Positions 3,863 through 62,593 are shown, counted from the stretch's first letter. The stretch is DNA of 64,000 nt from Eledone cirrhosa (GCA_964016885.1 OZ024742.1:156922001-156986000), one strand, 5' to 3'. Notes: a model not told the origin generated them from the letters alone. A program made the numbers and translations.

Positions 3863-3897
<35 letters not shown>

Positions 3898-3968
3898 TAT
3901 ATATATATATATGTATATATGTAATAAATGAATATAAATATGTGTATATATATGTATATATAAATGTA

Positions 3969-4041
<73 letters not shown>

Positions 4042-4125
4042 CATATATATACACACATATATATATACATTTATATATACAAATATATATATTTATTTAA
4101 TACATATATAAATTATATATTTATA

Positions 4126-4178
<53 letters not shown>

Positions 4179-4950: not shown

Positions 4951-5119
4951 ATTGTTTCTACTTTTGGCACATTACATTACTGGTACTTTATTTTATCGAC
5001 CTCTGTATGGATGAAAGGCAAATTTAACCTCGGCGCGATTTGAACTCAGATCGTAAAGGGACGTAACTATGCTGGAAAGCATATCCGACCCTCTACCGAT
5101 ACTGCCAATTCACCGCCCT
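4951..5119 (-). mobile_element. tRNA-derived SINE, near full length, inside (TAA)n
   Basis: Minus strand: A-box-like TGGCAGTATCGG, B-box GAGTTCAAATC, 3' end GTGCCAAAAGTAGAAACAA(TTA)n. Confidence 0.85.
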
Positions 5120-5628
5120 ATAATAATAATAATAGTAATAATAACAATAATAATAATAATAATAATAATGATAATAATATTAATAGTAATAATAATCGAT
5201 ACATGTAGAATATTATGTCAAACTTAACAGCTTTTGAAGGATATGTTTTCTGTATAGCGCACGTAATTGCAGCGAGGTGTAAAATATATTTTTATCACAA
5301 AGTAATAACATTCTGGTAGACCCGACAGTAAATTAAGTATTTTAACTATTACGAAGAATCACATTAAATGAGGGGTTACTGAGGTTAATATTTACTTCTA
5401 ATTGTAATCATTGTTTGAAGGAATCATGAACCGGAAAATTATATATCTGTTATTTTAAACAATGTTGTTCTAGAATTGAGGAGAAAATATGATTTGGCTT
5501 CAAACAATATTATATATAATATGCATGTTGTTATGACTGTTTGTGTATGTTTTGGAAACTATCAACTGATAGAAACCGTATAAATAGTCCCTCAAACTCA
5601 TGATTTTGAATTTTTTTCAAAATTCTAT

Positions 5629-10268: not shown

Positions 10269-10313
<45 letters not shown>
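9159..10313. repeat. Right arm of large inverted repeat pairing with 7405-8544
   Basis: Near-identical mirrored ORFs (7600-8133 vs 9570-10103; 8293-8475 vs 9228-9410). Confidence 0.95.
9622..10268 (+). mobile_element. 5'-truncated Dong/R4 family A fragment flanked by (TAA)n
   Basis: ORF 9570-10103 with CCHC + RLE; 3' UTR shared with 62370-62444. Confidence 0.92.
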
Positions 10314-10315
<2 letters not shown>

Positions 10316-10562
10316 TTTATTTATTAACCACAAGGGTTTACATAAAGTAGACATTAAGGACAGTGCAGGACAATGCAGGACGGTACAAATGGGCATTTCT
10401 GCGTGTAAAAAACAAAAACAGAGGATGTAACAAAAAATAACAATGAAAAATTCCCCAATAGGGGGGAGACTTCGTAGGGACATTTGTGGAGAAAGCCCAT
10501 TAAAAAGCCACAATGACCCTGACCACCAAGGCAAGTGCCTCTCCCAGTTGTCCACCTTTAAT

Positions 10563-13500
10563 TTACAGATATATACTCAGAGTAGGCCCATTCTCTCGGG
10601 CCATTCTTGCTTCTCTCACCCATCTTTCAACAAAATGCTGGGAAGAGAGCACTTCCCCCTCTACTCTGATTTTCCTTTTCAAATGAAATTTGAAAAAGTC
10701 AATCAGAGCATCACCGAAGAGGTAAGCGCTCGTCTTCAGCCCTTTCAACCGTGTCCACCATACTATCTCTTTCGCCATGGCCACCAGACAGATAAAAACT
10801 GCCTGCCCTTCCCGGCTAAAGGAGGAGGGCGGGGCAATCCTCACGATGGACTCAGATGATAGCCGGATCCGTCCTAAACGCGACAGCAGGTGTTCGACAT
10901 AAACCCACAAGTCAGCTATTTTCGGACACTGGACGAGTGCGTGCAGGACGGTTTCGTCGCCCTGCGCGCATCTCGGACATACCCGGCTGACGGCACCTCC
11001 ATGTCTGTAGAGTTTATCCCGAACTGGCAAGGCTCCTCGGTAGCACTGCCAGGCCAGAGATTTCTGGAAGTTGTCCATAGGCCCTGGCCCGAAAGTTCTT
11101 CCGAAGAGATTGGCTAGTTGATTTTCGTCGACGTCTAGAGTTTCCCCAAGTACGTCGTCGCTCTTCCCCTCCACTAATCCTCTATAGAACGCCGAAGTGG
11201 AGTTTCCACCGATCACATTGCCCGATTGATCGAGAGCTGTGAGCGCCTGAAGACATTCCAGTCTCCAGGCGCTCCCTCTCGGTCTTCGCTTGACCCAGGA
11301 CTGCAGCTCCGTCAAGGAAACGAGCTGGGGAAATACGCGTCTAGCAAACGGCGACCACACCTGATCACCGTCGAGGAAGAGGTGGAGATGTCGTAGCCTG
11401 AGCGCGTGCCTGCGCATCATCAGCCACGGCATGCCCAGCCCTCCACGTAGCGGGTGTTGACAACAGATGGACCGCCTGACCATCGGAGCACGTCCCTTCC
11501 ACAAAAAGCGAAAGAGCAAACGCTCCAGCGCAGTCAGGCGAGGCTTAGGACAAGGTACGACGGTCAGGCGGTAGCAGATGACAGACGCGATGTACGCGTT
11601 AGCGACCTCCGCTCGACCTTTTAGGGATAGCTTCCTCTCCGCCCATTTCTGGGTGAGAGAAGCCACCCTGCTCGTCACCTCGTCCCAGTTTTTGTCCGTC
11701 TGGAGGTCCGGACCGAACCAGACCCCTAGCAATTTAACCGGTCCGTCCGTCCAGCGTCCGACGACGCTGTTGGACGGCATGGACCTGCCTCTCCAGGTGC
11801 CGAGCTGCAGGCCCACTGACTTTTCCTGGTTGATCATTGCTCCTGTCACCGCTTCGTATTCTCTTAGTGTAGTGCCGATCGCCTCGATGTGTTTGGCGTT
11901 CGACACCACTACGGTGACATCGTCCGCATATGCTGACACGGATATTCCGCATCCTAGTTCGCGCGGGACTCCCCTGAACGTCTCCAGTTTGTGCAGTAAT
12001 GGCTCGAGAGTCAATACGTACAAGAGGGACGAGAGGGGACATCCTTGGCGGACCGAACGCATGATGTTGAACGGTTCCGACAGGTGACCGTTCACTCTCA
12101 CCACAGAGCAGATGTCGCTGTGCATGGCAGCGATCCAGCCTCTGAAGACGGGCCCAAAGCCAACCGCCCTCACGACTGCCGCTAGGTAACGATGGTCGAA
12201 CCTATCGAAAGCTTTCGACTGATCTAAATTGATCAAGGACCCACCCGTGCCAGGTTCCTTAGCTACCCTCTCTATGATGTATCGCATGAGGTGGAGGTTG
12301 TCGTGGAAGGATCTGTCGGGAATGGCGCATGTCTGCGCCTCTCCCTCCAGACCACCAACGACAAGCGCCAACCTCTTTGCTAGCACCTTGGCCAAAATAT
12401 TGAACTCTGTGTTTAGCAGAGTTATGGGCCTAACATTATCTATGTTATCTCCCTTGTTCGGATCCTTTCTCAGCAGTGCCACCGCTCCTCGGCTCACAGA
12501 ATTGGGAATTCTCCCGTTCTGTTGCCAGTTGCAGTAGACGTCCGCCAAGAGGCCTCCGAACAAGTCTGGCATCTGTACGTAAAGTTCATAGGGCAGACCA
12601 TCCAAACCAGGCGATTTACCCCTTGTGCAGCCAGTCATTTCCTCCCTTACTTCAGCGGCTGTTATCGGCTTTTCGCAACAATTCGCCTCAGTGGCCGAGA
12701 GCCGCGGCAGTCCGTCGAGGTAGACACTAAAGTCCATCCCTCTACCCGGCCCACCGCTGCCCCCGAACAGCTGAGCGAAGTGTCGCTGTAAAGCTTCACA
12801 CATTTGCCCGGGATCGAGTAGCATGCGCCCGTCGCGGTCCACCAAAGACCGGATCGTGGCTTTGTTGCCACGACGCGCCTCCGCCACTCGGGCCCATTGA
12901 ACGGCTTTCGTCCCCTCGTGTCTGAGAGCACGCACCCTTGCTCTGACAACGCAGCCTTCGTGCTTTGCATTGAATAATTGGTCAAGGGCCAATTTCGCCG
13001 CAAGCACGTCGGTCGCAATGCCTTTGCTAAGCGCCTCATCTAATTTTCTAACTAATTCTCCTTCTGCTCTATTTTTCTCTATTGCTAAAGTCTTACTAAA
13101 CCTAATGAACTCTATTCTAATTGCTCTTTTCAGAGCAAACCACCACTTGTTGTTGACGATGGCCCCCGTCAACGCCCGCTTAACTAGGTCGCTAATCCGG
13201 TCTCTGTAGGCTTTGTTCGCTGGTAAGGACGCGTTTAGCTTCCAGTAGCCGGGTCCTCGTCTATGAAGCCTATCTAATTGAAGCACACAGATCACGAATT
13301 TGTGGTCCGTGTAGCTGACTATCTTGAATTGTGGACAGCCTATGCTAGACCTATCTATTTCCCTACAAAATACTCTATCTAGATATGATCTGGATGACCC
13401 TATGCGATTTGTCCAAGTCCACATTGGTACATTCGGGAAATCCATTCGGTACCTGTCAGACAGTTTAAAACGTCTGAGCAGGTTTGGAGGCTCTTGCACC

Positions 13501-13981
13501 CTCCACCCCTATCCGCTAATCCCACACAGTCCCAGCGTGCATCTAAGATCCCGTTCCAGTCGCCCACTAACACTAAAGAGCGGGACGTTCCAAGAAAGGT
13601 CTCCAGACGCCGGAAGAAATCAGGCCGCCCTGCTCCTGTCGGGGCATAGACGGCCACTAGCCTGAAAGCTTGCCCGTCTCCGCTGGTCACGTCCAGCACC
13701 ACCAGCTTACCCTCTGGGTCCAGGAATATGGCCCGTATGGCGAGATCCAAACCTCTCCGAAAAAGCACAGCAACTCCTCCACCCGATCCAGGGCGGCTGG
13801 GAGATGCGTACACATCGTAGCCGCCGAAGATCGGTGCGAAGGCCCGTGCTTCGGAGATTCTGGTCTCGCTGATGGCCACTACATCTATGTTTAGTGACCT
13901 GAGGTCGTTGAGCAGGTGACCCTGCTTCCATAACGACCCCAAGCCACGCGCATTTATGCTGCCTATTCTGAGTGAGGTCAT
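10563..13981 (-). pseudogene. Tx1-A ORF2 (AP endonuclease + reverse transcriptase + Cys-rich tail), one frameshift near 13485
   Basis: SINARGL, SET, VYAP, GDWN, YLDR, TDH (APE); PGLDG, RPITLLN, RQGCPLS, YADD (RT); CPRC..HALVQC. Confidence 0.95.
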
Positions 13982-14016
13982 GTTTAAAATAGAGTGGAAA
14001 AGATGGGAAAGACCAC

Positions 14017-16115
14017 TTACCGTACTTTTGGTAGAGGAGGGATGGTTTTTACATCCCTTTTCACTTGATCGACTGGTGAAGGGACCGTTGAATCGTCCCT
14101 TCGGTTGGTCGTCGGTTCTTCTAAGAGAATGTCTGAATATACTCTTCGATTGATGGTTCCTCCTAGGTCCCTGAAATCACCAACTGCGTTGGTGAATTTC
14201 GTTTTAATGTTTCTGTATTGTTTCTGTGCTATTTTTAGCAGTCTTATGTTAGTTTGCGTTTTGATTGGTGCTGGTATTATGTAGTCCTGTTGTGAAATGT
14301 CTGTGTGTTCAATTATGTAAGTATTTAGTTTCTTGTTGTGTGTATTTATTGCCGTGCATTTGTTTTTCTGTGGGTTGGGTGTGGTTCTGCTATTTTCTTG
14401 TCGTTGTTGCTGGGTGTGTGTGTTTTGTTGTTGTGTTTGCGATGTTGGTGCTTGTGGTGGTGGTGTTGAAGGTGTTGTTGGCGGTGGGGTTGTCGCCGGT
14501 GGTGATGGTGGTGCTAGTGTGGGTGGTGATGGTGTTGGTGGTGTTGCTGCTGTGGGTCTCTTTGCAGTAGACTTTACCCTTTTCTCATTTCTTTCCTCCC
14601 TTTTCAAAGGCGACGATGCGCTGCTTCTGCGTTTGTGCCTTCTTACGACCTTTTGCCATCCCTCTCCCACCTCACACTCCATGTCTGATTCTGTGAGGTC
14701 GGGGAGGGGTACCAGCTCTACTCTTTCACTTGTTGTTGTTGGTGATGTTTGCACTGGAGTCTCTGTTGCAGCTGCATTTGGTATTGCTGTTGTTGTTGTT
14801 GTTAATATTTCCACTGCTGCTGCTGTTTTTGATTTCCGTGGAGTGGGTATGGGTGCCACGGACCTATCGTTCCTGGTTGCCGCTTGTCCTGTTGCTGGTA
14901 GCCGTAGAGCCAGATTCGGAAGGAGGGGGTTTTCTCCTTTCTCAGGGTCTTCTCGTTGCAGAAGGCCCTGAGGTGAGTCTTCGATCCACAGCGAAAGCAT
15001 TTCGGGCGTTTGCCCTCAACACTTATGGGCAGTTGAGTGCCGTTATCGAAGTCTATCACATCCGGGATAGCTTCGATGCACTCCTGGTTGGTTTGGATTA
15101 GCATCTCAATGGAGGTGCCTACCCAATCTTCTCTTACTTTTTTTTGTACTTGCAGTACAGTTGTTTTGTCCTCGATTCCGACGAGGGCAGACGCGGCCAG
15201 CCAAGAAGGGGCCATTCCGGGGGGGACGTGGGTCAGTTTGACCCTCACAATTTTTTGCCCGCAGTAGGAGGGCACCAACACCATTTCCTCGCTCCTTAGG
15301 GTCACTACTGATTGGGCCTTTGCCTCCTGGGGTGTGGCAAAAAGTACTTCTACGGTGGCATATTTTTTGCCTCGAGTGATGTGCGTTTTCCGCTGCCACA
15401 CAGACCCCAAGGCTTTTTGTATCTGAGCCTCTGTGGCTCTTTCCACCCTACGGGATTTTGTACTTACTGTACGGTACGTGACCATACAGTGCTGTTGGGT
15501 TTCGAAAAATGTTTCCGCTGCCTTGCAGATTGCTCGGTGTCCATTCTTTCTCACCATCTTCTTCGCTTCCTCTAATTCCTCATTTGTTATGAGGATTGTT
15601 TCCAAGTTTTTCGCAATGCCTGCAAATGAGATTGGTTTTTATTTGCTGCTATTGTTGTTGTTGTCGTCAGAGCTGCTGGTACTTTTGTTGTTGCTGCAGG
15701 TACTACGACTACTGCCTCCGCCGCTGTTGCTGTGGTTGTTGTTGGTGTTGCTGCTGCTAATGCTGTTGTTGTTTATGCTGCTGGTGATGCTGTTGCGGCT
15801 GCTACTGTTGTTTTCATTGTCACTGTTGCTGTTGTTATTACGGCTGCTACTGCTATTATTCCTGACGTCAGACGAATGAACTGGGTTTTCGTATTTCCCG
15901 CACACCTGTTTCGTCGCTGTCGTCGTGGAGAAACCTTGCACGCTTTGCACGAGACTTTTCTTTTCTTTCGTCACTTGCGAAAGAGAAGGGAGGGAGAGAA
16001 ACACATTTAAAGAAGGGAGAGAGAGAGACAATCTTCTCTCTGCTGTAGTGATGATTGAGGAAGAAGAAGACGGAATGAGTGGGAGTGACGTATGAAATTT
16101 CTTTTTCGTAGCCAT
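14017..16115 (-). pseudogene. Tx1-A ORF1 (gag-like), frameshifted
   Basis: Fragments 15639-16115 (Ser/Asn-rich), 14802-15605 (CFRCGSKTHLRAFC knuckle), 14017-15000 (Pro/Thr-rich); the last two are fused in frame in the copy at 56831-57916. Confidence 0.88.
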
Positions 16116-16347
16116 GTTGTTTTTTGTTTAAAATGAATATTGGGTACAAAACGGCAATAACTGGTTATTTAACCCCGAAAGGCCAAATAACGGACAGAAA
16201 GACCCCTCTCACGAGGAGGAGGGTGTCTTTATCAACAATTTGGTTCAAGTTTTAAACAATTTACAATTGTTTTAACGGTTAAAAATTACTATACCTTACA
16301 GAGCCGAGCCTCCGTCAACCATGGCATTCAATAATAATAATAATAAT

Positions 16348-20800: not shown

Positions 20801-22688
20801 AAGATGGCCCGTATGGCGAGATCCAAACCTCTCCGAAAAAGCACGGCAACTCCACCCCCGATCCAGGACGGCTGGGAGATGCGTACAGATCGTAGCCGCC
20901 CAAGATCGGTGCGAAGGCCCATGCTCCGGAGATCTGGTCTCGCCGATGGCCACCACATCTATGCTTAGTGACCTGAGGACGTTGAGCAGGTGGCCCTGCT
21001 TCCATTACGACCACAAGCCACGCGCATTTATGCTGCCTATTCTGAGTGAGATCATGTTGAAAAGGAGTGGAAAAGATGGGAAAGACCACTTACCTTACTT
21101 TTCGTAGGGGAAGGATCGTTTTCCCATCTTTCTCACTGCTTGTGGCCTCCTCCGGAAGGATGTCCTTATAAATCCTCCTGGAGAGTGTTTGTCGGAAGTC
21201 CTCATGTCCTTGGGGAATTTTTGTTTTAGTGTCGTGTACGTTTTCTGTGTGATGCGAGTGATTTGTATGTGTGGAGTTGGTGTGAATTTTTTGGGTGTTG
21301 TGTAGTATTTTTCTGTGATGCTGGTGTTTTGTTGGATGTAGTGTAATAATTGGTTGTTGTTCAAAATTAATGCTGTGTAGTGTGTATCGTTTTGGTTGTT
21401 TTGTTTTGTTTGCGTTTGTTGTGGGTTTGTTTGTTTCCCTTTTTGGTGACATTTGTGGTGTTGGTGATTGTGGTGTTGGGGTTAATGATGGTGATGGTGT
21501 TGGTGTTTGTGGTGATGGGGTCGGTGATGTGGTGTGGATGGCGGCATAGCTGTCCTAACTTTTTTGTTTGTTAGTTTATTTGTTTCCCCCTGTATTTTGT
21601 TTTTAGAGGGGGAAGGAAGGGGATTTTTTTTCTTTTTGGTGTTCTTTTTCTTTTTTTCTTTTTCCCGATACAGTTTCCCACACCTCGTCGTCACAATCTG
21701 TATCCAGTTGCGATAGATCGAGGAGTGGAGAATCCTCCACAGGCGTTGTGTTTGATTGTAGCGTGGAGGATGGTGGAGGCGCTGGTGCTAGTTTGGCGCG
21801 GTGGGAGGTGGTGGTGTTGGTTTTGCTACTTTTTTGGGTGTTGTTGCTGCTACAGTTGCTTCTGTTGTTGCTGCTACAGTTGTTGCTGCCATTTCTGCTG
21901 CTGATGTAGGTTTCTCTAGCCCACACATGTCCAAAAGCTTTTTGTATTTGGGACTCGGGTGCCCGTTCCACTCGGCAAGATTTTGTGTTTAACGTTCGAT
22001 AAGACACGGTACATAGGCGCCGATGCTCCTTTTTATTAGGTGTGTGGGGTGTGGGGTGAAGGAGACCCTGTACCCATCTTTTTTTACCATTCTCTTGGCT
22101 TCATTTAATTAATCCTGGCTTACCTCGATTGTTTCGCTCTTCTTCGCTGCTTTGGCAAACGACACATTTTGTTTCGCGGTGGTGCTGATGTTGTTATTCT
22201 CATTGTTGTTGTTGTTGCTGTTGTTATTGTTATTTTTAGTTTCAGTTGTGGTGGTGGTGTCAGTGGTGGAAGAGTCGTTTCTGGGTGAATCCATTTTCAT
22301 GTCACGAGATAATAATTTTTTTTTTGTTTCCGTTGTCGCTGTGGTGGTGGTGGTGATATCAGTGGTTTTCGTTGTTCTTTTTGACATTGTGATGGTGGGG
22401 GTGGCGGCTTTAAAACCTGCAATTATTGGTAATGGCGGGAAATCCATGTCTTTATGCGGCAAATCTAAATAATTCAGACTGTTAGTAATTTTATTTTCAG
22501 TGTTGGCATCCGTGGCAAGGCTTACAATGGTGTTGGTGTTGGTGGTGGTTGTGGTGGGGGAGGAGGGTGTTGGTCTGTCAAAAACAGTAAATTTCTCGTC
22601 CAATTTTCCATAACTGTCAATTTGAAACAACTGTAAACAACAAACCTTTGCGGAGCTCACAATAATACGATTTCCTACGTAGGCCGCC
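17840..22688 (-). mobile_element. Decayed Tx1-type element subfamily B with both ends and internal deletions
   Basis: APE fragments (VYAPTGA, GDWN), RT fragments, different ORF1 (22109-22705, 21603-22007, 21090-21452); (TAA)n both sides. Confidence 0.9.
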
Positions 22689-22703
22689 AATAATGCTAAT
22701 AAC

Positions 22704-22743
<40 letters not shown>

Positions 22744-22750
22744 TTTAGGT

Positions 22751-25329: not shown

Positions 25330-26640
25330 GTGAAGGTACGCACCTGTTGAATAGAGTGTTATGAAATCGCTCCCGTATTTTTTTTTTATTTTTTCCATAT
25401 TTAAAACAATTGTGATTCGATAATTCTTATTACAAGTGGAGCAGAAAGTGGTAACGCACCACATTATGGCATAGGGCTCTAATATTTGATATTTAATTTT
25501 CTACCAGAAATTGTATAGTCAGAAAAGAAAATGGCTAGAAAACAACAGCCAAATAAAGTCACCACCAACACCACCACCACCGCCGCCACCATCACCATCA
25601 CCGCTACCACAAAAAATCCAGCCAAATACAAACCAGCACCATCCCTAGAGGACTGCTATGCCATCACCACCGCTACCACTATCCCCTTACCACTTAAGAG
25701 AGGGATGGTGGTAGTGCCGCTACACATGAAAAGAAGCGAGGAAGTTATCAAAAGATATAAATAGACTGGGTTAGTGACTCGGTCAAACAGCTAACAACAA
25801 CAACATCAAAATAATGATGTTGTATCTCTAAACTCTCCCAAAATGTTTAGTTTAAACGATGTCAAATCTAAAATATAATATAATAATGGTTTCTATTTTA
25901 CACACAAAGCCAGCAATTACCCAGTGCATTACTGGAACTTTATTTTATCGACCCCGTAAGGATGAAAGGCAAAGTTAACATCGGCGGGATTTGAACTCAG
26001 ATCTTAAAAGGACGTAACTCTATGCTTCAAAGCATGATGTCCGCCTCTCTACCGATACTGCCAATCCACGCCCTCTATAATATAATAATAATAATTGTTT
26101 CTGGTTTTGGCTCGGGGCCAGCAATTGCCCCGGTGTGTTACTGGTGCTTTGTTTTGTCGGTCCCGTAAGGAAGAAAGGAAAAATAAAAATAATAATTGTT
26201 TCTGCTTTTGGCACAAGGCCAGCAATTATTCAGTGTATTACTGGTGCTTTGTTTTATCGACCCCGTAGGGATGAGGGGCGGGGTTGACCTCGGCGAGGTT
26301 TGAACTCGGACCGTAGGGGGACGTAACTCTGTGCTTCAGGGCATGGCGTCTGACTCTCTACCGATACTGTCAAATGATAAGCAACAAGTCGAAACATTAT
26401 AGAACAGAACACAGACAGAAGCAAACGCATCAGCAAACACAAATTTCAAAAGTTTTCAACAGAACAACCCCTACTTCCCTTAAAAGCAGCAGCAACAACA
26501 ACACTAGTAACCGATGTTAATGACCTTGAAAAACGAAAAACGCAAAGGAAAAAAACAAACAAACAAACAAAATAAACTAAGTCAGACATTCAATCATTAC
26601 AATGAAACTTATGATTATTTTTTTTATTTTTCATTTATTT
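25330..26640 (+). mobile_element. Unclassified repeat family 'GAAATCGCTCCCGTA', copy 1, interrupted by SINEs (other copies ~27374-28300, ~57935-58790)
   Basis: Shared ATGAAATCGCTCCCGTA..AAAAGAAAATGG start, Thr/His-rich middle, shared end AAACTAAGTCAGACATTC..ACAATGAAACTTATG; strand inferred. Confidence 0.65.
25887..26372 (-). mobile_element. Three tandem SINE copies or fragments separated by short (TAA)n
   Basis: Repeated TTGTTTC..GGCCAGCAATT..CCCGTAAGGA..TTTGAACTC at ~25887, ~26095, ~26196. Confidence 0.85.
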
Positions 26641-26646
26641 ATTTAT

Positions 26647-27326
26647 TTAATTGTCGTTCTCGACCTTACCGCTGTTATTTTTGTTATTGTCGTTCTCGAC
26701 CTTACTGCTGTTATTTTTGTTATTGTCGTTCTCGACCTTACTGCTGTTATTTTTGTTATTGTCGTTCTCGACCTTACCGCTGTTATTTTTGTTATTGTCG
26801 TTCTCGACCTTACCGCTGTTATTTTTGTTATTGTCGTTCTCGACCTTACCGCTGTTATTTTTGTTATTGTCGTTCTCGACTTTACCGCTGTTATTTTTGG
26901 TGTTGTTGTTGGTGATGTTGTTGGTGTTATTGTTGGTGTTGTTTGTGTTAGAAATATTTGTTAATTTTAAATCTGTTACAATTTTTTTTTCCTTTGTAAT
27001 ATTTTCGTTTATATTTACCTCCGCTGGAAAGCTGTCTTGTTGACATGCTGATAAAGTCTCCCTCTCTCTGTGTTGTCTGACAGCGCTCTCTCTCTTTTTT
27101 GTGTTATCCATGTTGAAATTTTTCAAAAAATATTTTTACACAAATAAGAATACGACACCCCGTAAAGGGGTGCCGTATTATTTACTAGTGAACCCCTGTA
27201 TTAGGGGGGTCACTTCTTCTAAACTTTTATCAAATTTAAAACTTGAATAAAAGGTTTAGAACGGTTGAAAAAGAGGTACAACGTTGAAAAAGACTGGAAG
27301 CGATAAGAAGCGTGGCTTTACCAACC

Positions 27327-39756: not shown

Positions 39757-41050
<1,294 letters not shown>

Positions 41051-51559: not shown

Positions 51560-53015
51560 AAAAAAGCAGAGGCAATGTGTCACATTTCAAAAAAATTAAG
51601 ACCAAACTATTCACCATCCCAGCATGAAAGAGAAAACCAGGAAGGAATATTACCGGAGAGTTCGTGCCCTTTTGAAAACTGAGCTCTATCCAAAGAATAA
51701 AACATATGCTATAAATGGTCTTGCAATTCCTGTTACCACATATAGTTCCAACACAATCCATTAGAAAACTAATAAAATAAAAGAAATGAACATCAAAATC
51801 AGGATCCTTGCGCCCTGCAAGAAAGTACATCCCCAAACACATATGTGGATCACCACTATCTTCTTGGGAAACCCATCATGCTCGCTCAAGCAAAACAAAA
51901 ACAGATGCGCTTGAACAATACCTTAACTCTATAAATGACTGGATGCTGAAAATATTTGAAATTTGAAATAAAAGGAAATTTATTAGCATTCAATTAGGAA
52001 AGAAATTAGAAATGTTGTGGAAGAATTGGGAATAAACTTTGAAAACGATGGTGATTCTTGAATTCAATCTTCAAAGAACATCAAAGTGCTGGCGTAAAAG
52101 GAAGGTCAACGGAAACTCTACACTACATGAGAGAAAAACCTATTGTATGTTCAGTATGTTATCGGTACCAAAGTACATGATGTATTTCAAATATTTACCT
52201 ATCAATGGCTGAGGAGATCTTCGCGAAAAAGAAAGAGTGCGGAATTTGTGTACGTGCCACAAGACCAATGTATTTCAACGCGCAACATTCAAACCAATGT
52301 GATCAGAAACTGAACTCCCCTCAATTGTCGATTTTGCGATGAGCAAATTGAGATCATTGTCTGCCTCACTTCAGGCTGCACTGAATTTGCTTCCCAGCAA
52401 TATAAAACTATGCATGATAGAGTAGAGCAATACCTACAGTGGCTAACATGCACAGTTATGCTATAAAAAGGGGAAATGGTACAATCATGACTTAAATGCA
52501 CTAACAAGATTCGTGAATGTGACAATCCTATGGGATTTACAAGTGTACACCGACGGGAAGGTCAATGCCATCATACCTGATATAATAGGTTAGAAACGTA
52601 AGCAGTAAAAAAAAAAAACACTTCTTAATTGGCATTAGATCGTAGCAGCACATGGAAAGCATTCCAAAAGCTCCGTAAATATAAATATATGACAATGGAA
52701 ATTGGGAAAGTGTGGCATGTTAAAGCCTGTACAATACTAATGATAGTCGGTGCACTTGAAAAGATAACAAACAAAAGAAAAATATTTGGACTCATTACTT
52801 GGAAAACTGCAAGAGATAGGGAAAAAACTAGCAATGTTGTCGATGTTGTTGGAAGTGTATTATAAATTTATATAAGATTTACTGATTTGTCCCTGCCCTC
52901 ATAGCATAATTTGTAGGCCATTGTTTTTTGAAAATGTGTATTATAAAATTCTCTCTCGGGTGCCAGGTTGACACTTGGCAAATATAGGAAAGAAGCATAA
53001 TTCTAAGTAATTTCT
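51560..53015 (+). pseudogene. Heavily decayed Dong/R4 element, family C
   Basis: Manual translation ~51643: EYYRRVRALLKTELYPKNKTYAINGLAIPVTTYS; ORF 52629-52865 KLRKYKYMTMEIGKVW..IVGAL; ends at (AAT)n. Confidence 0.8.
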
Positions 53016-53028
53016 CCATAATAACAAC

Positions 53029-53061
<33 letters not shown>

Positions 53062-53069
53062 TAGGGAAG

Positions 53070-53115
<46 letters not shown>

Positions 53116-53376
53116 TTTCTTTATTAACCACAAGGGTTTACATAAAGTAGACATTAAGGACAGTGCAGGACAATGCAGGACGGTACAAATGGGCATTTCT
53201 GCGTGTAAAAAAACAAAAAACAGAGGATGTAACAAAAATAACAATGAAAATAACAATGAAAAATTCCCCAATAGGGGGGAGACTTCGGAGGGACATTTGT
53301 GGAGAAAGCCCAGTAAAAAGCCACAATGACCCTGACCACCAAGGCAAGTGCCCTCTCCCAGTTTTCCACCTTTAGT

Positions 53377-56300
53377 TTACAGATATATACTCAGAGTCGG
53401 CCCATTCACTCGGGCCATTCTTGCTTCTCTCACCCATCTTTCAACAAAATGCTGGGAAGAGAGCACTTCCTTCTCTACTCTGATTTTCCTTTTCAAATGA
53501 AATTTGAAAAAGTCAATCAGAGCATCACCGAAGAGGTAAGTGCTCGTCTTCAGCCCTTTCAAACGTGTCCACCATACTATCTCTTTCGCCATGGCCACCA
53601 GACAGATAAAAACTGCCTGCCCTTCCCGGCTAAAGGAGGAGGGCGGGGCAATCCCCACGATAGACTCAGATGATAGCTGGATCCGTCCTAAACGCGACAG
53701 CAGGTGTTCGACATAAACCCACAAGTCAGCAATTTTCGGACACTGGACGAGTGCGTGCAGGACGGTTTCGTCGCCCTGCGCGCATCTCAGACATGCCCGG
53801 CTGACGGCACCTCCATGCCTGTAGAGTTTATCCCGAACTGGCAAGGCTCCTCGGTAGCACTGCCAGGCCAGAGATTTCTGGAAGTTGTCCATAGGCCCTG
53901 GCCCGAAAGTTCTTCCGAAGAGATTGGCTAGTTGATTTTCGTCGACGCCTAGAGTTTCCCCAAGTACGTCGTCGCTCTTCCCCTCCACTAATCCTCTATA
54001 GAACGCCGAGGTGGAGTTTCCACCGATCACATTGCCCGATTGGTCGAGGGCTGTGAGCGCCTGAAGACATTCCAGTCTCCAGGCGCTCCCTCTCGGTCTT
54101 CGCTTGACCCAGGACTGCAGCTCCGTCAAGGAAACGAGCTGGGGAAAAACGCGTCTAGCAAACGGCGACCACACCTGATCACCGTCGAGGAAGAGGTGGA
54201 GATGTCGTAGCCTGAGCGCGTGCCTGCGCATCATCAGCCACGGCATGCCCAGCCCTCCACGTAGCGGGTGTTGACAACAGATGGACCGCCTGACCATCGG
54301 AGCACGTCCCTTCCACAAAAAGCGAAAGAGCAAACGCTCCAGCGCAGTCAGGCGAGGCTTAGGAAAAGGTACGACGGTTAGGCGGTAGCAGATGACAGAC
54401 GCGATGTACGCGTTAGCCACCTCCGCTCGACCTTTCAGGGATAGCTTCCACTCCGCCCATTTCTGGGTGAGAGAAGCCACCCTGCTCGTCACCTCGTCCC
54501 AGTTTTTGTCCGTCTGGAGGTCCGGACCGAACCAGACCCCTAGCAATTTAGCCGGTCCGTCCGTCCAGCGCCCGACGACGCTGTTGGACGGCATGGACCT
54601 GCCTCTCCAGGTGCCGAGCTGCAGGCCCACTGACTTTTCCTGGTTGATCATTGCTCCTGTCACCGCTTCGTATTCTCTTAGTGTAGTGCCGATCGCCTCG
54701 ATGTGTTTGGCGTTCGACACCACTACGGTGACATCGTCCGCATATGCTGACACGGATCTTCCGCATCCTAGTTCGCGCGGGACTCCCCTCAACGTCTCCA
54801 GTTTGTGCAGTAATGGCTCGAGAGTCAATACGTACAAGAGGGACGAGAGGGGACATCCTTGGCGGACCGAGCGCATGATGTTGAACGGTTCCGACAGGTG
54901 ACCGTTCACTCTCACCACAGAGCAGATGTCGCTGTGCATGGCAGCGATCCAGCCTCTGAAGACGGGCCCAAAGCCAGCCGCCCTCAGGACTGCCGCTAGG
55001 TAACGATGGTCGACCCTATCGAAAGCTTTCGACTGATCTAAATTGATCAAGGACCCACCCGTGCCAGGTTCCCTAGCTACCCTATCTACGATGTATCGCA
55101 TGAGGTGGATGTTGTCGTGGATGGATCTGTCGGGAATGGCGCATGTCTGCGCCTCTCCCACCAGACCACCAACGACAAGCGCCAACCTCTTTGCTAGCAC
55201 CTTGGCCAAAATCTTAAACTCTGTGTTTAGCAGAGTTATGGGCCGGAAATTGTCTATGTTATCCCCCTTGTTCGGATCCTTTCTCAGCAGTGCCACCGCT
55301 CCTCGGCTCACAGAACTGGGAATTCTCCCGTTCTGTTACCAGTTGCAGTAGACGTCCGCCAAGAGGCCTCCGAACAAGTCTGGCATCTGTACGTAAAGTT
55401 CATAGGGCAGACCATCCAAACCAGGCGATTTACCCCTTGTGCAGCCAGTCATTGCCTCCCGTACTTCAGCGGCTGTTATCGGCTTTTCGCAACACTTCGC
55501 CTCAGTGGCCGAGAGCCGCGGCAGTCCGTCGAGGTAGACACTAAAGTCCATCCCTCTACCCGGCCCCCCGCTGCCCCCGAACAGCTGAGCGAAGTGTCGC
55601 TGAAAAGCTTCACACATTTGCCCGAGATCGAGTAGCATGCGCCCGTCGTGGTCCACCAAAGACCGGATCGTGGCTTTGTTGCCACGACGCGCCTCCGCCA
55701 CTCGGGCCCATGGAACGGCTTTCGTCCCCTCGTGTCTGAGAGCACGCACCCTAGCTCTGACAACGCAGCCTTCGTGCTTTGCATTGAAGAATTGGTCAAG
55801 GGCCAATTTCGCCGCAAGCACGTCGGTCGCAATGCCTTTGCTAAGCGCCTCGTCTAATTTTCTAACTAGTTCTCCCTCTGCTCTATTTTTCTCTATTGCT
55901 AAAGCCTTACTAAACCTAATCGATTCTATTCTAATCGCTCTTTTCAGAGCAAACCACCACTTGTTGTTGACGATGGCCCCCGTCAACGCCCGCTTAACTA
56001 GTTCGCTAATCCGGTCTCTGTAGGCCTTGCGCGCTGGTAAGGACGCGTTTAGCTTCCAGTAGCCGGGTCCTCGTCTATGAAGCCTATCTAAGTCAAGCAC
56101 ACAGATCACGAATTTGTGGTCCGTGTAGCTGACTATCTTGAATTGTGGACAGCCTATGCTAGACCTATCTATTTCCCTACAAAATACTCTATCTAGATAT
56201 GATCTGGATGACCCTATGCGGTTTGTCCAAGTCCACATTGGCACATTCGGGAAATCCAATCGGTACCTGTCAGACAGTTCAAAACGCCTGAGCAGGTTGG

Positions 56301-56796
56301 TGAGGCTCTTGCACCCTCCACCCCTATCCGCTAATCCCACACAGTCCCAGCGTGCATCTAAGATCCCGTTCCAGTCGCCCACTAACACTAAAGAGCGGGA
56401 CGTTCCAAGAAAGGTCTCCAGACGCCGGAAGAAATCAGGCCGCCCTGCTCCTGTCGGGGCATAGACGGCCACTAGCCTGAAAGCTTGCCCGTCTCCGCTG
56501 GTCATGTCCAGCACCACCAGCTTACCCTCTGGGTCCAGGAAGATGGCCCGTATGGCGAGATCCAAACCTCTCCGAAAAAGCACAGCAACTCCTCCACCCG
56601 ATCCAGGACGGCTGGGAGATGCGTACACATCGTAGCCGCCGAAGATCGGTGCGAAGGCCCGTGCTTCGGAGATTCTGGTCTCGCTGATGGCCACTACATC
56701 TATGTTTAGTGACCTGAGGTCGTTGAGCAGGTGACCCTGCTTCCATGACGACCCCAAGCCACGCGCATTTATGCTGCCTATTCTGAGTGAGGTCAT
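53377..56796 (-). pseudogene. Tx1-A ORF2 (APE-RT) with one premature stop at 55336-55338
   Basis: ORFs 55336-56796 and 53377-55311 are in the same frame; CAA (Gln) in the other copy is TAA here. Confidence 0.95.
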
Positions 56797-56830
56797 GTTT
56801 AAATAGAGTGGAAAAGATGGGAAAGACCAC

Positions 56831-57916
56831 TTACCGTACTTTTGGTAGAGGAGGGATGGTTTTTACATCCCTTTTCACTTGATCGACTGGTGAAGGGACC
56901 GTTGAATCGTCCCTTCGGCTGGTCGTCGGCTCTTCTAAGAGAATGTCTGAATATACTCTTCGATTGATGGTTCCTCCTAGGTCCCTGAAATCACCAACTG
57001 CGTTGGTGAATTTCGTTTTAATGTTTGTGTATTGTTTCTGTGCTATTTTTAGCAGTCTTATGTTAGTTTGCGTTTTGATTGGTGCTGGTATTATGTAGTC
57101 CTGTTGTGAAATGTCTGTGTGTTCAATTATGTAAGTCATTAGTTTCTTGTTGTGTGTGTTTATTGCCGTGCATTTGTTTTTCTGGGGGTGGGGTGTGGTT
57201 CTGCTATTTTCTTGTCGTTGTTGCTGGGTGTGTGTGTTTTGTTGTTGTGTTTGCGATGTTGGTGCTTGTGGTGGTGGTGTTGAAGGTGTTGTTGGCGGTG
57301 GGGTTGTCGCCGGTGGTGATGGTGGTGCTGGTGTGGGTGGTGATGGCGTTGGTGGTGTTGCTGCTGTGGGTCTCTTTGCAGTAGACTTTACCCTTTTCTC
57401 ATTTCTTTCCTCCCTTTTCAAAGGCGACGATGCGCTGCTTCTGCGTTTGTGCCTTCTTGCGACCTTTTGCCATCCCTCTCCCACCTCACACTCCATGTCT
57501 GATTCTGTAAGGTCGGGGAGGGGTACCAGCTCCACTCTTTCACTTGTTGTTGTTGGTGATGTTTGCACTGGAGTCTCTGTTGCAGCTGCATTTGGTATTG
57601 CTGTTGTTGTTGTTAATATTTCCACTGCTGCTGCTGTCTTTGATTTCCGTGGAGTGGGTATGGGTGCCACGGACCTATCGTTCCTGGTTGCCGCTTGTCC
57701 TGTTGCTGGTAGCCGTGGAGCCGGATTTGGAAGGAGGGGGGTTTTCTCCTTTCTCAGGGTCTTCTCGTTGCAGAAGGCCCTGAGGTGAGTCTTCGATCCA
57801 CAGCGAAAGCATTTCGGGCGTTTGCCCTCAACACTTATGGGCAGTTGAGTGCCGTTATCGAAGTCTATCACATCCGGGATAGCTTCGATGCACTCCTGGT
57901 TGGTTTGGATTAGCAT
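56831..57916 (-). CDS. Tx1-A ORF1 C-terminal half (5'-truncated), CCHC knuckle
   Basis: CFRCGSKTHLRAFC followed by a Pro/Thr-rich region. Confidence 0.85.
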   Translation of the reverse strand: MLIQTNQECIEAIPDVIDFDNGTQLPISVEGKRPKCFRCGSKTHLRAFCNEKTLRKEKTPLLPNPAPRLPATGQAATRNDRSVAPIPTPRKSKTAAAVEILTTTTAIPNAAATETPVQTSPTTTSERVELVPLPDLTESDMECEVGEGWQKVARRHKRRSSASSPLKREERNEKRVKSTAKRPTAATPPTPSPPTPAPPSPPATTPPPTTPSTPPPQAPTSQTQQQNTHTQQQRQENSRTTPHPQKNKCTAINTHNKKLMTYIIEHTDISQQDYIIPAPIKTQTNIRLLKIAQKQYTNIKTKFTNAVGDFRDLGGTINRRVYSDILLEEPTTSRRDDSTVPSPVDQVKRDVKTIPPLPKVR

Positions 57917-58790
57917 CTCAATGGATAATAATAATTAGGGAAGAAGACGCACGAGGTGACGGAGGTCATGAAATCGCTCCCGTAAGTTTTGAATTTTTAA
58001 CATGTTTAAATCATTTGTGAAATAACAACTCTTAGTACAAATGCTACGTAAAGCACCCGGCTTGAGCCCAAAAAAATTCGGACCCAAAATATATTGTTAT
58101 AAGGCTCAAATATTCAAATATTCAACTTTATATTGTACACTGTATATCCAAAAAAGAAAATGGCTATAAATGGAAGAAGAACCCCCCCTCCTCCTCTGTC
58201 TACACTATATAGAACAGCCAAACTCACCAACACCAGAAACTAGATACACAACCCACCCCATCACCTGTGTACACTAAACCACCACCGCTCACTACGGCCA
58301 TCATTACAACCATTATCCCATCACCGCCGCCACCACCCCTTCACTCCTTCACTGCTACCACCGCTACAGCACCATCACTACAGTAATACGGTCACATCAC
58401 CGCCACCACTGCCTCGGTATCGACATCACCACCACCACTGTCTCAGTATCGCTACCGCCGCCAGACTCCCACCACTTCTAGCTGGCTGCTGCCACCACAT
58501 TATAGAATCCCTACTGCTAAAAAAGAGGAAGGCATCAAAATATATAGATAGACTCAAAAGAAAAAAGAAAAAACAAACAACAAAACCAAAGCAGCACAGC
58601 AACAACAGCAAAAAACGAGAAAAACAAACAGAGAAAAAAAAAAAAAAAAAAAACCAAAAAACGTAAAGAAAATAAGAATGAAGAGAGAAGCAGGCGGACG
58701 GACAGAGAAGAGGGGGGAAAAACTAAAACTTAAAAAACAAAAACTAAGTCAGACATTCGAACACTACATTACAATGAAACTTATGCTTAT

Positions 58791-61700
58791 TCATTTTTGG
58801 GGCCCTTTCTGCCTGTGTGTTTGTTTGTTTATGTGTGTTCGTATACAGCGTGGTGATAATGCCACACAAGGGCCAAGTGGAATGGCGGATCCACAGATGG
58901 ATATGTAACCATACATTCGCCAATCCTCGATAAGAGTGTTTAAATATCGAACATAAACAGTTCGAATAACGGTGAAATGGAGACTAGAAGGTCATGTGAC
59001 AGACTCTCACCCAACAGGTGCCCCCTGGCTCAGCAGCAGGAACCTGACTGTCAACCAAATACTGCTGCTGTTGGCGGAAGGAGAAGAAGGAAAGGGGCCA
59101 GAACCAACTGGACGAAATAATTGAATAGAACTGTTATGCAATGTTACCTGAAAAGTAACCCCAAGGAGAGGGGCTACAGGAGACGGATGCATAACATCTG
59201 GAACGAGATTGGTTTATTTAAATTAGATGAACAAAAATTGGCCGGGCAGGCTCGGGTAATAAGAACTAATGGATGGATAAGCGAGCTGGAACTGGAGGAA
59301 CTGAGCAGAGAGAATGGCTTGGAGATGGCGGGTGTAGTATGCCAGACAAGCGAGCCAGTGGGAAATGAAGGTGAAGAGGTCCTGAGAACGGAGGAACCAC
59401 CCGAAGCAGACAATGATCTGAATACTGAGATAAATAATACCTGGAACAGAGATACGGCCACTGAGGAGATGAATGCTGACGGGCTAGGACAAGATTCGGT
59501 TGACATCCTAAATTTAGTGGTAGATGAATTGAACAATGATAGTGGGAGACCTATGAACCTAAGATTTGTAGACAGGAAAAAGTTAAAAGAAACAACAGCT
59601 AAGGTAAACAAAGTCATCCCATACCTTGAGGCGAGGAGCCTTCACCAGTGCAACAATATCCTCAAAGCAACAGCAAATACGGTGAGGAAACTACTTGGTA
59701 TAAAAGCGAGAGGAAACAACAGACAAGAAAGAGCAGAGCCGTGGTGGAAGAAGCGACTGAGTGGGCAAATCGGGGAAATGAGAAATGACATAGGAAAGCT
59801 TGAGTCACTACTGAATGGGACACTAAAAAACATAGGCACTAAAAATAGACTGGAAATAAAATACAAAACTAGGAGGAAAAAGCTAAATATTATCATAGAG
59901 GAACTGAAGCAACGCATTGTAGCAAAGAGTGCAAAAATCAGGCGATACGAGAACAGAGTCAGTCAGTATAAACAGAACCGCATGTTCGACAACAACCAGA
60001 AGATGCTGTTTGGACAGCTTGAGGGGAAAGAAAGAGGCAACGACTTGATCCCTGGGGCGGAGCAAACTAAAACATTCTGGAGAGGAATATGGGAGCAGGA
60101 TGTTAGACACAATGCCCAGGCAGGGTGGATTGAGACAGTACAGAGGGAGATCGGTGAGCAGGCACAACAACAAACTGATTTGAGTATCACAGTTGAAACT
60201 CTTAAGGGGCAGGCCAAAAAACTAACCAACTGGAAATCACCAGGCCCAGATGGTGTGCAGGGGTATTGGATTAAACATTTAACATCCCTCCACCCGAAGC
60301 TGACGGCCATGTTCAATGACTGCTTGGTGTCAGGTGAGGTGCCAGAGTGGTTGACAAAAGGTACCACAGTTCTGATAATGAAAGACCGAATCAAGGGTAA
60401 CGAAGTTACCAACTATAGACCTATCACATGTCTGCCCGTAATGTGGAAACTGTTGACGAGCATTGTGTCTGAGGAAATCTACCATCACCTCCACACAAAC
60501 AACTTGTTACCGGACGAACAGAAAGGATGCCGAAAGAAGTCACGTGGTACAAAGGACCAGTTACTTATTGATAAGATGGTAATGGGGAATTGCAGGAGGA
60601 GACACACTGATCTTGCCATGGGATGGATAGACTACAGAAAGGCATTTGACATGGTGCCTCATTCCTGGATCACCAAAAGCCTGGAGATCTTCAGGGTGGC
60701 AGATAACATCAGACAGTTGCTAGGCAGGAGTATGGGGTCCTGGGAGACAGAGTTGACATCAACTGGAGTATCCTTGGGAAGCGTGAAGATCAAGAGAGGT
60801 ATCTTCCAGGGAGATAGCCTGTCCCCTCTGTTGTTTGTCCTTGCCCTGATGCCCTTGACCATTATGCTGCGAAAAGTGAGAGCAGGATACAAGTTGGGAA
60901 GGGGAGAGCTTACCATCAATCACCTCCTCTTCATGGACGATCTTAAGCTCTTCGGGAAAAGTGAGAAGGAGTTGGATGTGCTTGTTGACACTGTCCGTAT
61001 TTTCAGCAGTGATATATGTATGCAGTTTGGTATTGGTAAATGTGGAGTCATTGTGATGAAGAGGGGTAGGTTGAGCAGAAGTAACGGGATCCAGATAACA
61101 ACAGGTGAGATGATAAAGGAAATTGACTCTGAGGAAGGATACAAGTATTTGGGCGTTCTGGAGGCTGATGGCATAAAGAACAAAAAAATGAAGGAATTGT
61201 TAAGAACTGAATACATTCGGAGAGTAAGGAGCGTATTGAAGTCACATCTGAACAGCAGAAATGCCATAAGCGCAGTAAATTCCCGAGCTGTGTCTATTAT
61301 TAGGTACAGTGCGGGAATTCTGAGATGGAATGTTGCTGAACAAAAAGAAATGGATAGGAAGACTAGGAAGCTATTGACTATCTACAACATGTTCCACAAG
61401 AGGAGTGATGTCGATAGACTCTACCTAAGGAGATCTGAGGGTGGAAGAGGTCTTATCAGCATAGAGGACTGTGTTCAGATGGAGAAAAACAACCTATACA
61501 AATACGTGACCTATAGTAAGGAGCCAATGCTCAGAACTGTACTGAAGGAGGGGACAGTAGGCCAGGGGATATCCAAGGAGGAAATAACATCAAGGAGGGA
61601 GAGCAGCCTTAAGGGAAAATCCCTTCATAGTACCTTCTTTGAGAAAACTGATTTTAGAGATCCACAGACATTGAACTGGTTGAGAAGAGGAGACCTCAAA

Positions 61701-62444
61701 AAGGCTACAGAAGGAATGCTAATGGCTGCGCAGGAGCAGGCCCTCAAAACGAAGTGGTTGAAGCACCATATCTACAAGGAGGAGGCTAGCCCACTGTGCA
61801 GGATCTGTGGAGAGAGAGAGGAGACTGTGGCTCACATTGTGTCCGGGTGTAAACACCTAGCCCAGACCCACTATAAGGACTGGAGACATGATGTGATGGG
61901 CAGGGTGATCCACTGGCACCTGTGCAAAGTAAACAATCTACCACATTCTGAGAAATGGTATGAGCATAGGCCAGAGGCGGTGATGGAGAACGATCAGGTG
62001 AAGGTGCTGTGGGATTTAAGGATACAGACGGACAAAAAACTGGAACACAATAGACCTGACCTGGTGGTTGTGGACAAAGAAAAAAGATCGTGTCTGATTG
62101 TGGATGTGGCCTGCCCGTTCGACACGAGAGTGCAAGAGAAGGAGAGGGAGAAAATTAACCGATACCAGGACCTAAAGTGGGAGGTGAAAAGGATTTGGAA
62201 CTGCCATGAAGTCAAAGTGATCCCGATTGTCATAGGCGCACTGGGGACTATCTCCAAAAGTTTCCAGGGATGGTTAAAGAAAATCGGCCCCTTCACGCTT
62301 TTTGGAACGCTTCAAAAGGCATGCTTGCTTGGAACAGCAAGAACCCTCCGATACGTCCTGAATATCTGAGGCTGCAGGTAGTGGCTTGATATTCAATCCA
62401 ACGGACTTTCCAGTTAACCAACATCAATGACTGAGATTCAAGGA
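58791..62444 (+). mobile_element. Full-length Dong/R4-clade RLE retrotransposon, family A
   Basis: Single long ORF, short 3' UTR, (AAT)n tail; 5' boundary approximate. Confidence 0.93.
58977..62369 (+). CDS. Dong/R4 ORF: RT + CCHC + restriction-like endonuclease; probable true ATG 58977, premature TAA 59118-59120, then 1082 open codons
   Basis: PGPDG, NYRPITCL, EQKGC, WIDYRKAFD, GIFQGDSLSP, FMDD, YKYLG, CRIC..HIVSGC, RHD, NRPDL..IVDVACP..EKINRY. Confidence 0.95.
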
Positions 62445-62478
62445 ATAACAACAATAATAATAATAATAATAATAATAA

Positions 62479-62592
62479 TTGTTTCTACTTTTGGCACAAG
62501 CCCAGCAATTATCCCAGTGCATTACTGGTACTTTTGTTTTATAAACCCCGTAAGGATGAAAGGCAAAGTTAACCTCGGCAGGATTGAACTCA

Positions 62593-62593
<1 letters not shown>
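62479..62593 (-). mobile_element. 5'-truncated SINE between Dong and Tx1 tails
   Basis: TTGTTTCTACTTTTGGCACAAG..GGATTGAACTCAG flanked by (TAA)n. Confidence 0.9.

Follow-up and report, generated by a model that had tools for sequence, protein, structure and literature searches.

It is already established that some long interspersed nuclear elements (LINEs) are specific for microsatellites, that LINE tails can seed microsatellites and that tandem-repeat tails can guide the initiation of reverse transcription. The Tx1 clade includes Kibi in (TC)n, Koshi in (TTC)n and crocodilian Tx1 families in (TTCC)n/(TTTC)n (accessible parts of PMC4494074 and PMC3812793). In these parts, (TAA)n is ascribed to Dong alone, with TAA given as the Dong target in PMC3812793, which also describes, for L1/Alu, that insertion of a LINE or of a short interspersed nuclear element (SINE) can deliver a mature microsatellite at birth. 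The tandem-repeat tails of the Drosophila I factor, (TAA)n, and of eel UnaL2, (TGTAA)n, are thought to set the start of reverse transcription (PMC3747384). For Octopus vulgaris, an annotation from 2026 lists 13 recently active 'L1-Tx1' families as well as 5 Dong-R4 families with 1,129 recent insertions (PMC13282606, Table 1, in its accessible part). Here, we analyse a 64,000-nt stretch of the Eledone cirrhosa genome (GCA_964016885.1, OZ024742.1:156922001-156986000; referred to as the window), in which a young, 5'-truncated L1/Tx1-like LINE interrupts the head of a Dong-like element and is accompanied by a (TAA)n tract that most likely arrived with it.

This octopod LINE resembles Kibi, Koshi and the crocodilian Tx1 families in being of the APE type, in possessing two open reading frames (ORFs) and in residing, often in tandem, in fixed orientation within one type of microsatellite. 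It differs from them in its target, which is (TAA)n read as TTA, in its octopod host and in that its membership of the Tx1 clade is tentative, being suggested by pairwise scores. Like Dong it uses (TAA)n, and both elements share arrays and interrupt each other; unlike Dong, however, it carries an N-terminal APE domain, scores best against L1 ORF2p and reads the opposite strand of the array. As in the I factor and UnaL2, a short tandem repeat replaces poly(A) at its 3' end, and the repeat-set initiation of those elements fits the duplications described below, which start exactly at the boundary of body and tail. However, the I factor and UnaL2 belong to the clades I and L2 and are not reported to target their own repeat, whereas the octopod LINE has the sense unit TTA and this repeat is also its genomic target. 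At the locus studied here, insertion appears to have delivered a microsatellite tail as known from L1/Alu. In the case of L1/Alu, a tail comes with every insertion, whereas delivery seems exceptional for the octopod LINE, where the repeat after the element is mostly target DNA. Full-text literature searches, together with PMC13282606 and PMC9115989 in their accessible parts, revealed no (TAA)n-targeting L1/Tx1-like LINE in cephalopods, although Repbase or the supplement of PMC4494074 may list TAA-specific Tx1 families.

A truncated LINE enclosed by a 20-bp duplication

The 20-nt sequence ATAATAATAATTAGGGAAGA is present at 53051-53070 and again at 57925-57944, that is at the two ends of a LINE copy on the minus strand. 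The repeat is not extendable in either direction (53050 A versus 57924 G; 53071 T versus 57945 A), and as its copies lie exactly at both junctions, they behave as a target-site duplication (TSD) should. A 13-mer comprising the non-repeat core and three repeat bases, TAATTAGGGAAGA, occurs with at most one mismatch at two sites in the window, both of which are the TSD copies; only 0.18 occurrences are expected, and a count of two was not reached in any of 100 shuffles. Thus, the 20-mer is a genuine TSD. The locus is composed as follows:

53018..53060, plus strand: older (ATA/TAA)n array, located before the Dong 5' end prior to insertion; its last ~10 nt belong to the left TSD copy
53051..53070, no strand: left TSD copy, on the 3' side of the LINE in LINE orientation
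53071..53113, minus strand: internal tail between LINE body and TSD, (TTA)14 in LINE sense, (TAA)14 on the plus strand
53114..53376, minus strand: LINE 3' untranslated region (UTR), with AATAAA 10 nt before the tail
53377..56796, minus strand: ORF2 region, broken into a 486-aa and a 574-aa piece; 1,139 aa in intact copies elsewhere
56831..57924, minus strand: 3' part of ORF1 (361 C-terminal codons), cut off by the 5' truncation at 57924; a complete ORF1 has ~698 aa
57925..57944, no strand: right TSD copy; the Dong element starts within it and contributes its final 8-10 nt

The tract inside the duplication is a pure TAA repeat of 43 nt, that is 14 units plus one nucleotide, and beyond 53113 it gives way to the reverse complement of the LINE 3' end (TGATTTC...). 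When the segment between the TSD copies is read on the minus strand, the LINE body ends with ...AATAAAGAAATCA and is followed by 43 nt of (TTA)n; at the opposite end, the body boundary at 57924 reads ...CTCAATGG. TRF reports a period-3 repeat over 53018-53113. These data agree with a first-pass annotation of the window, which had described a 20-bp TSD enclosing a (TAA)n of about 14 units. Its treatment of the element as full length has to be corrected, as the focal copy has 4.8 kb of a ~6.03-kb LINE and lacks about the first 1,216 nt. Aligned with a full-length copy, it spans positions ~1217-6029, and it is 99.46% identical over 4,812 nt to the nearest sampled copy, which indicates a young insertion. 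Truncation is also evident from a second copy in the window, since its ORF1 continues upstream of the point at which the focal copy stops:

10269..16347, minus strand: second, full-length copy of the same LINE, used as family reference and 97.5% identical to the focal copy

The tail array of this second copy (10269-10313) adjoins a Dong 3' end, and its 5' end, GAATGCCATGG at ~16329, is followed by (AAT)6 at 16330-16347.

A search of the own genome with the last 217 nt of the focal LINE returned 380 candidates. The best 40 were scored, nine of them being at least 99% identical to the query, and 38 were fetched; the two left out were the window's own place and a candidate within L019. Three other genomic copies are 100% identical to the focal LINE over these 217 nt. 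Ten full-length copies measure 6,005-6,040 nt and comprise a ~215-nt leader, an ORF1 of ~698 aa and an ORF2 of 1,139 aa, with both frames open in three of the ten. Full-length copies start with GAATGC(C/T)ATGGTTGACGG, and the other copies have many different start positions and the constant end ...AAAGAAATCA. An AATAAA hexamer (53122-53127; TTAATAAAG on the minus strand) lies 10 nt ahead of the LINE tail. If it were used, the transcript would be cleaved within the first few UUA units and then polyadenylated, yet poly(A) is found on no copy.

In the focal copy, the ORF2 piece at 55336-56796 (486 aa) encodes the APE endonuclease, and the piece at 53377-55101 (574 aa) encodes the reverse transcriptase (RT) and zf-RVT domains (Pfam: Exo_endo_phos 1.2e-14, RVT_1 9.7e-19, zf-RVT 2.4e-8; for an intact 1,139-aa ORF2 the values are 3.1e-14, 1e-28 and 6.6e-8, respectively). 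The 698-aa ORF1 matched no Pfam family at E <= 0.01; reading by eye revealed one CCHC knuckle motif, CFRCGSKTHLRAFC. In the Tx1 clade, ORF1 carries an RNA-binding module together with a CCHC knuckle. By its domains and by sequence comparison, the LINE belongs to the L1/Tx1 group, and its pairwise scores lean towards Tx1. A search of solved structures with its ORF2 gave human L1 ORF2p as best match (1.7e-42) and R2 at 2.4e-20. Among fish proteins, ORF2 scored 277 bits against the Tetraodon 'pol-like protein' BAC82605.1 and 272 bits against a YTX2-labelled protein, in both cases with 29% identity over ~725 aa; human L1 ORF2p reached 148 bits against the LINE ORF2 by phmmer, which is a different method from that behind the fish-protein bit scores. 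BAC82605.1 presumably originates from the screen of Kojima and Fujiwara. The fish relatives of one database match are named 'Transposon TX1 ... ORF 2', 'YTX2' and 'pol-like protein', and the nearest named protein in a large database is from the octopod Argonauta hians. A protein-cluster search with the LINE returned generic 'reverse transcriptase' clusters only and gave no hint of a clade.

The Dong-like neighbour and the pre-insertion site

The LINE is inserted, in antisense orientation, within the first 8-10 nt of a Dong-like element:

57937..62443, plus strand: full-length Dong-like (R4-type) element with a ~1.18-kb 5' UTR, a 1,082-aa ORF at 59121-62369 and the 3' end ...GATTCAAGGAATAACAACA
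62444..62479, plus strand: (AAT)12 tail of Dong; behind it lie a SINE in reverse orientation, an array of (AAT)14 and the 3' terminus of an older LINE copy

According to Pfam, the Dong ORF contains RVT_1 (7.2e-23) and no Exo_endo_phos/APE domain, and among solved structures it is closest to R2 proteins (2.8e-30). An ORF that has an RT domain, lacks the APE domain and is closest to R2 proteins fits the restriction-like-endonuclease (RLE) group, which includes Dong/R4. The CCHC and PD..D..K-like motifs in this ORF were read by eye only.

A search of the own genome with the right flank of the LINE (57935-58120) yielded 1,343 candidates; the 40 that were scored are all at least 99% identical, and 24 paralogs were fetched. 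Of these, 23 are collinear with the focal locus at 99% for at least 1.52 kb, from the 5' end into the antisense of the ORF, and the last one is so for 0.5 kb; collinearity almost always reaches the end of the fetched 1.66 kb. At all 24 Dong 5' junctions, one uninterrupted (TAA)n array leads straight into (T)(T)AGGGAAGAAGACGC; in antisense reading, ...GTGCGTCTTCTTCCCT(A)(A) passes directly into one (TTA)n array. Dong itself thus inserts into (TAA)n, its 5' junctions lying behind the array in 24 of 24 cases and its 3' ends running into (AAT)n. Given that all paralogous junctions have a single tract, the tract at 53071-53113 was most likely absent before the LINE inserted. That is, the pre-insertion site most likely had one tract and the second arrived with the insertion, as the first-pass annotation had reasoned when it ascribed the inner tract to the element and not to the target.

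The young Dong heads are irregular at their 5' junctions in four of the 24 cases. The first ~13 nt of Dong are present in tandem in L050, L042 and L057 show partial repeats, and in L046 a (TTC/GAA)n run lies between head and array, which points to imprecise finishing of the 5' end as Dong integrates.

The junction between the LINE tail and TCTTCCCTAATT occurs once in the 3.0-Gb genome, namely at the focal locus, and this uniqueness means that the locus has no duplicate and that a donor for transduction is absent. A 3' transduction from a donor copy with the same flank is ruled out on these grounds. We also weighed a template-switch chimera, in which the right flank would derive from a different (TTA)n-tailed LINE ('family D') whose RNA 3' end had been copied twice; this idea was discarded, as the flank represents the 5' region of Dong in antisense. 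The left flank (52560-53015) is an old interspersed repeat with ~70% identity to its paralogs (481 candidates in an own-genome search). In L086-L090, these paralogs carry a short variable trinucleotide tract of the ATA, CAG or GAT type at the place of the focal array, and it is possible that such a tract was the origin of the array first used by Dong. A second haplotype or haplotig of the locus was not found by the left-flank search, in which the only 100% match is the window itself and the other matches are ~70% identical old repeats. The 24 public runs listed for the stretch include no RNA holder. Among the Logan contigs of four runs (X1, X4, X5 and X6, over 52300-58600), no listed joint skips the LINE, which is uninformative either way: the contigs end at arrays, and the unique left flank is well covered by X1 only.

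Direct observation covers the TSD and the truncation, the location of the tract within the TSD, the identity of both flanks and the single tract in the 24 paralogs. Starting from these, we consider it probable that a 5'-truncated L1/Tx1-like LINE inserted 8-10 nt into the Dong element and that its internal (TAA)14 was reverse-transcribed from a (UUA)n tail of the RNA. The site before the event would have consisted of the left flank, one (TAA)n array and the Dong head (T)TAGGGAAGAAGACGC.... In target-primed reverse transcription (TPRT), the first nick would have been made on the plus strand at ...GGGAAGA^AGACGC, that is after ...TTAGGGAAGA and 8-10 nt into Dong, in line with the annotated position of the nick about 10 nt beyond the edge of the old array. 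The second nick would have been placed on the minus strand, 20 nt away and inside the old array. Because the priming end ...TTAGGGAAGA-3' of the plus strand could not pair with (UUA)n, the simplest reading is that RT began its synthesis at, or close to, the 3' terminus of an RNA with at least 14 UUA units and copied all of them. Such a long RNA tail could stem from transcription into the array downstream of the donor copy or from slippage on a shorter tail. Finally, cDNA synthesis would have halted ~1.2 kb before the 5' end of the RNA.

Junctions of other copies and the origin of the internal tract

The junctions of the 38 fetched LINE copies were read by eye. In 31 of them, pure arrays or later insertions make the TSD unreadable, so that tail and target are inseparable. 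The duplications of the remaining seven copies are:

L010: (C)ATCATTATA
L016: (C)ATTATGT
L020: ATTATTATTATG
L022: ATTATTGTTGTTGTCGTT
L030: ATTATTACTACTACTAC
L033: (T)ATTATTACG
L037: ATAATGAG[G/A]TTGATAATA

In all seven cases, the LINE body is immediately followed by the duplication, which usually starts with ATTA..., leaving room for zero to at most three tail units; L010 and L037 have none. The same arrangement is seen with an abundant SINE of ~170 nt, which has the head GGGCGGTGRATTGGCAGTATCGG... and ends with ...AGTAGAAACA or ...AAAGTAGAAACA, followed by ATT repeats. It is present in the window at 62480-62593 (minus strand) and 4953-5145 as well as in L010, L015, L016, L017, L026, L036 and L054. 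Among 13 near-full-length SINE copies sampled in ~509 kb, four have unreadable TSDs and nine have readable ones of 11-20 nt (two imperfect); all nine abut the body, and eight start with ATTA. In the sampled loci, 36 SINE segments have the same orientation as the LINE and 17 the opposite one. The SINE is likely mobilised by this LINE or by a relative.

As the readable TSDs begin at the end of the body, the apparent tail in those LINE and SINE copies is target DNA. Duplications that begin with ATTA(T) directly after the body place the nick just 5' of ATTAT in the sense strand, where a primer ending in ...ATAAT-3' pairs with the first UUA units; judged from these junction sequences, this is likely the usual nick of the LINE family. 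In this usual mode of insertion, TAA would be gained only via the 8-20-bp duplication. The median length of the pure ATT run after the LINE body is 6 units (range 0-20, n=39), and such a spread is expected if run length is set by the landing position in the array. Of the readable junctions (8 LINE and 9 SINE), only that of the focal copy clearly departs from this pattern, and deposition of a whole new tract per insertion, as at the focal locus, appears rare. We propose that the focal copy represents an off-register event which exposed the RNA tail.

These findings bear on the first-pass proposal that each insertion seeds a fresh microsatellite, in a feed-forward loop that could account for the clusters and part of the (TAA)n load. 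As a general rule, under which every insertion leaves a tract from its tail and much of the load arises in this way, we now regard it as improbable. In its favour, a tract did arrive with the focal copy, the (ATT)n runs described above follow nearly all copies, arrays are reused as targets, and near tail-only insertions exist, in which 16-20 nt of LINE body plus a tail lie inside arrays (L021, L054). However, the TSD begins at the body end in 7 of 7 LINE and 9 of 9 SINE copies, which is the absence of internal tails from other TSD-bounded copies that the annotation itself had named as speaking against its proposal. Moreover, tail units are absent from L010 and L037, the focal type of junction is unique in the genome, and nothing has inserted into the new focal tract. 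A quite different origin of the locus, namely recombination, gene conversion or repair between TAA arrays that created 20-mer repeat and tract without any retrotransposition, might be suspected from the density of arrays in this region and from tandem copies with long identical flanks elsewhere (L008, with the same 57-nt array twice). We consider it extremely unlikely: an exact 20-bp repeat that includes 10 nt of unique sequence at both ends, combined with 5' truncation and a 3' tail, is the standard signature of TPRT, and the whole-genome junction search revealed no donor locus with the same segment and flanks.

If retrotransposition is accepted, the 14 units could still have arisen otherwise than by copying of a long RNA tail. 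A short tail of 1-4 units may have been inserted and later expanded to 14 units by replication slippage. The AATAAA 10 nt before the tail, the 0-3 units in the other resolved copies and the 0.5% divergence, which allows for many generations of microsatellite change, would suit this scenario. Yet the 3.7-unit TAA stretch of the right TSD is still identical to its partner and the tract is perfectly pure over 43 nt; in addition, microsatellite tracts below ~4-5 units rarely expand, so that we doubt this course of events strongly. Slippage or re-priming of RT on a short UUA template, as suggested for the tandem-repeat tails of other LINEs, is unlikely as well. Repeated re-alignment might continue where the primer lacks complementarity, as it does here, but the other copies have no excess units. 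With regard to DNA, this explanation predicts the same as copying of a long RNA tail and differs from it only in the origin of the 14 units.

Copying from the RNA tail remains our preferred explanation, although several points weigh against it. The paralogous Dong heads are a proxy and not the orthologous site, and no empty allele was seen. The usual mode to which the focal copy is compared is based on 7 + 9 junctions read by eye, those of the LINE being drawn from the best 40 of 380 candidates. The divergence of 0.5% may leave room for microsatellite slippage, so that the presence of the tract inside the TSD is firm while its length at insertion is not. The AATAAA hexamer would predict early cleavage followed by polyadenylation, which is a poor fit with an RNA tail of 14 units. 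Lastly, the nick site GGGAAGA^AGACG is unlike the inferred usual site, and a pre-existing nick may have been used instead of one made by the element's own endonuclease.

Shared (TAA)n arrays and nested clusters

Arrays in and around these elements are repeatedly used as targets. In 14 of 14 full-length LINE copies, (ATT)n lies directly 5' of GAATGC, and most LINE 3' ends run into arrays. Head-to-tail LINE-LINE junctions are found in L005, L008, L023 and L029, the head of a related family (GGCGACCTACGTAGG...) follows a LINE copy in L002, L012 and L027, and the reverse complement of the Dong 3' end does so in L004, L006, L007, L013, L017 and L028. Dong segments near LINE copies are antisense to the LINE in 19 of 22 cases. 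The array is thus read as TAA by Dong and as TTA by the LINE, that is from opposite strands. All 13 arrays of at least six units in the window abut a terminus of the guild formed by LINE, SINE and Dong. A 200-kb sample from arbitrary round coordinates contains only two arrays of at least six units, both of which abut SINE ends when inspected by eye; the library-based flank test had missed both. The density of arrays in the window is ~20 times that of this small 200-kb sample.

The first-pass annotation had seen in the new tract a target for Dong and for the LINE itself. Arrays are indeed reused by the LINE, related LINEs, the SINE and Dong; the new tract at the focal locus, however, carries no insertion. 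Likewise, the clusters that it sought to explain by feed-forward are real and the arrays are tied to element termini, but regular deposition of tails as their cause is unsupported. Clusters are better explained by strand-specific targeting of arrays together with duplication of array segments, since the LINE, its relatives and the SINE (TTA sense) and Dong (TAA sense) share arrays in fixed opposite orientations. An ordinary insertion would split one array into two and add a duplication of 8-20 bp. Taken together, the local inference that the tract came with the element and that the nick fell off the array is well supported, whereas a general feed-forward model operating through tails is not.

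Further families were encountered behind arrays. A related LINE family with homologous ORF1 and the head GG(C/T)GACCTACGTAGG... starts directly after (ATT)n (window 21090-22744, minus strand; L002, L012, L027, L045, L062, L063). Two more heads behind arrays read CAGTTGCATTTATCTTGC... (window region of 32268, L032, L044, L049, L060, L061) and TCGGCCTGTTCGGACGCC... (L031), which together with the related family amounts to at least three more families on the same target. An element ending with ...AAGCGTGGCTTTACCAACC and followed by (AAT)16, which is the tail polarity of Dong, is present at 27247-27326 (plus strand) and in L025; in the window, it is succeeded by an older Dong head that is 32 nt shorter. 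In L008, the same 57-nt interrupted array (ATTATTATTGTTGTTGTCGTT...GCTATT(ATT)6) precedes two successive full-length LINE copies; unequal exchange, 5' transduction or a duplication of very great length could be behind this. On a different chromosome, a motif resembling it makes up an 18-bp duplication in L022. The window also contains long (TA)n arrays that are unrelated to the TAA arrays (958-1837, 3866-4175 and 39760-41049, with ~435, 158 and 652 units, respectively) as well as a 36-bp tandem repeat at 26639-26910 (7.6 copies, 96% identity), whose minus strand codes for a repetitive peptide inside an open frame of 162 aa.

We tentatively suggest, with slightly less than even confidence, that a self-sustaining '(TAA)n niche' is shared by at least five families, in which arrays and elements breed each other and which would account for essentially all long (TAA)n tracts of this octopod genome. 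Its members would be Dong as an RLE-type element, several L1/Tx1-like LINEs of the APE type that differ in their heads, and the abundant SINE. Two classes of enzyme would act on opposite strands, and insertions would split and partly duplicate the array and sometimes add a whole tail.

The focal locus represents a natural experiment in which the nick missed the array by 8-10 nt, the primer was left unpaired and the copy displays the probable 3' end of the RNA. Comparison of this copy with ordinary ones separates target-derived from element-derived units, which are usually confounded in microsatellite-targeting LINEs. In this octopod, an APE-type LINE and a SINE share the (TAA)n target of Dong on the opposite strand. 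This sharing of one target from opposite strands explains the nested Dong/LINE clusters and ties most of the sampled arrays to the termini of elements.

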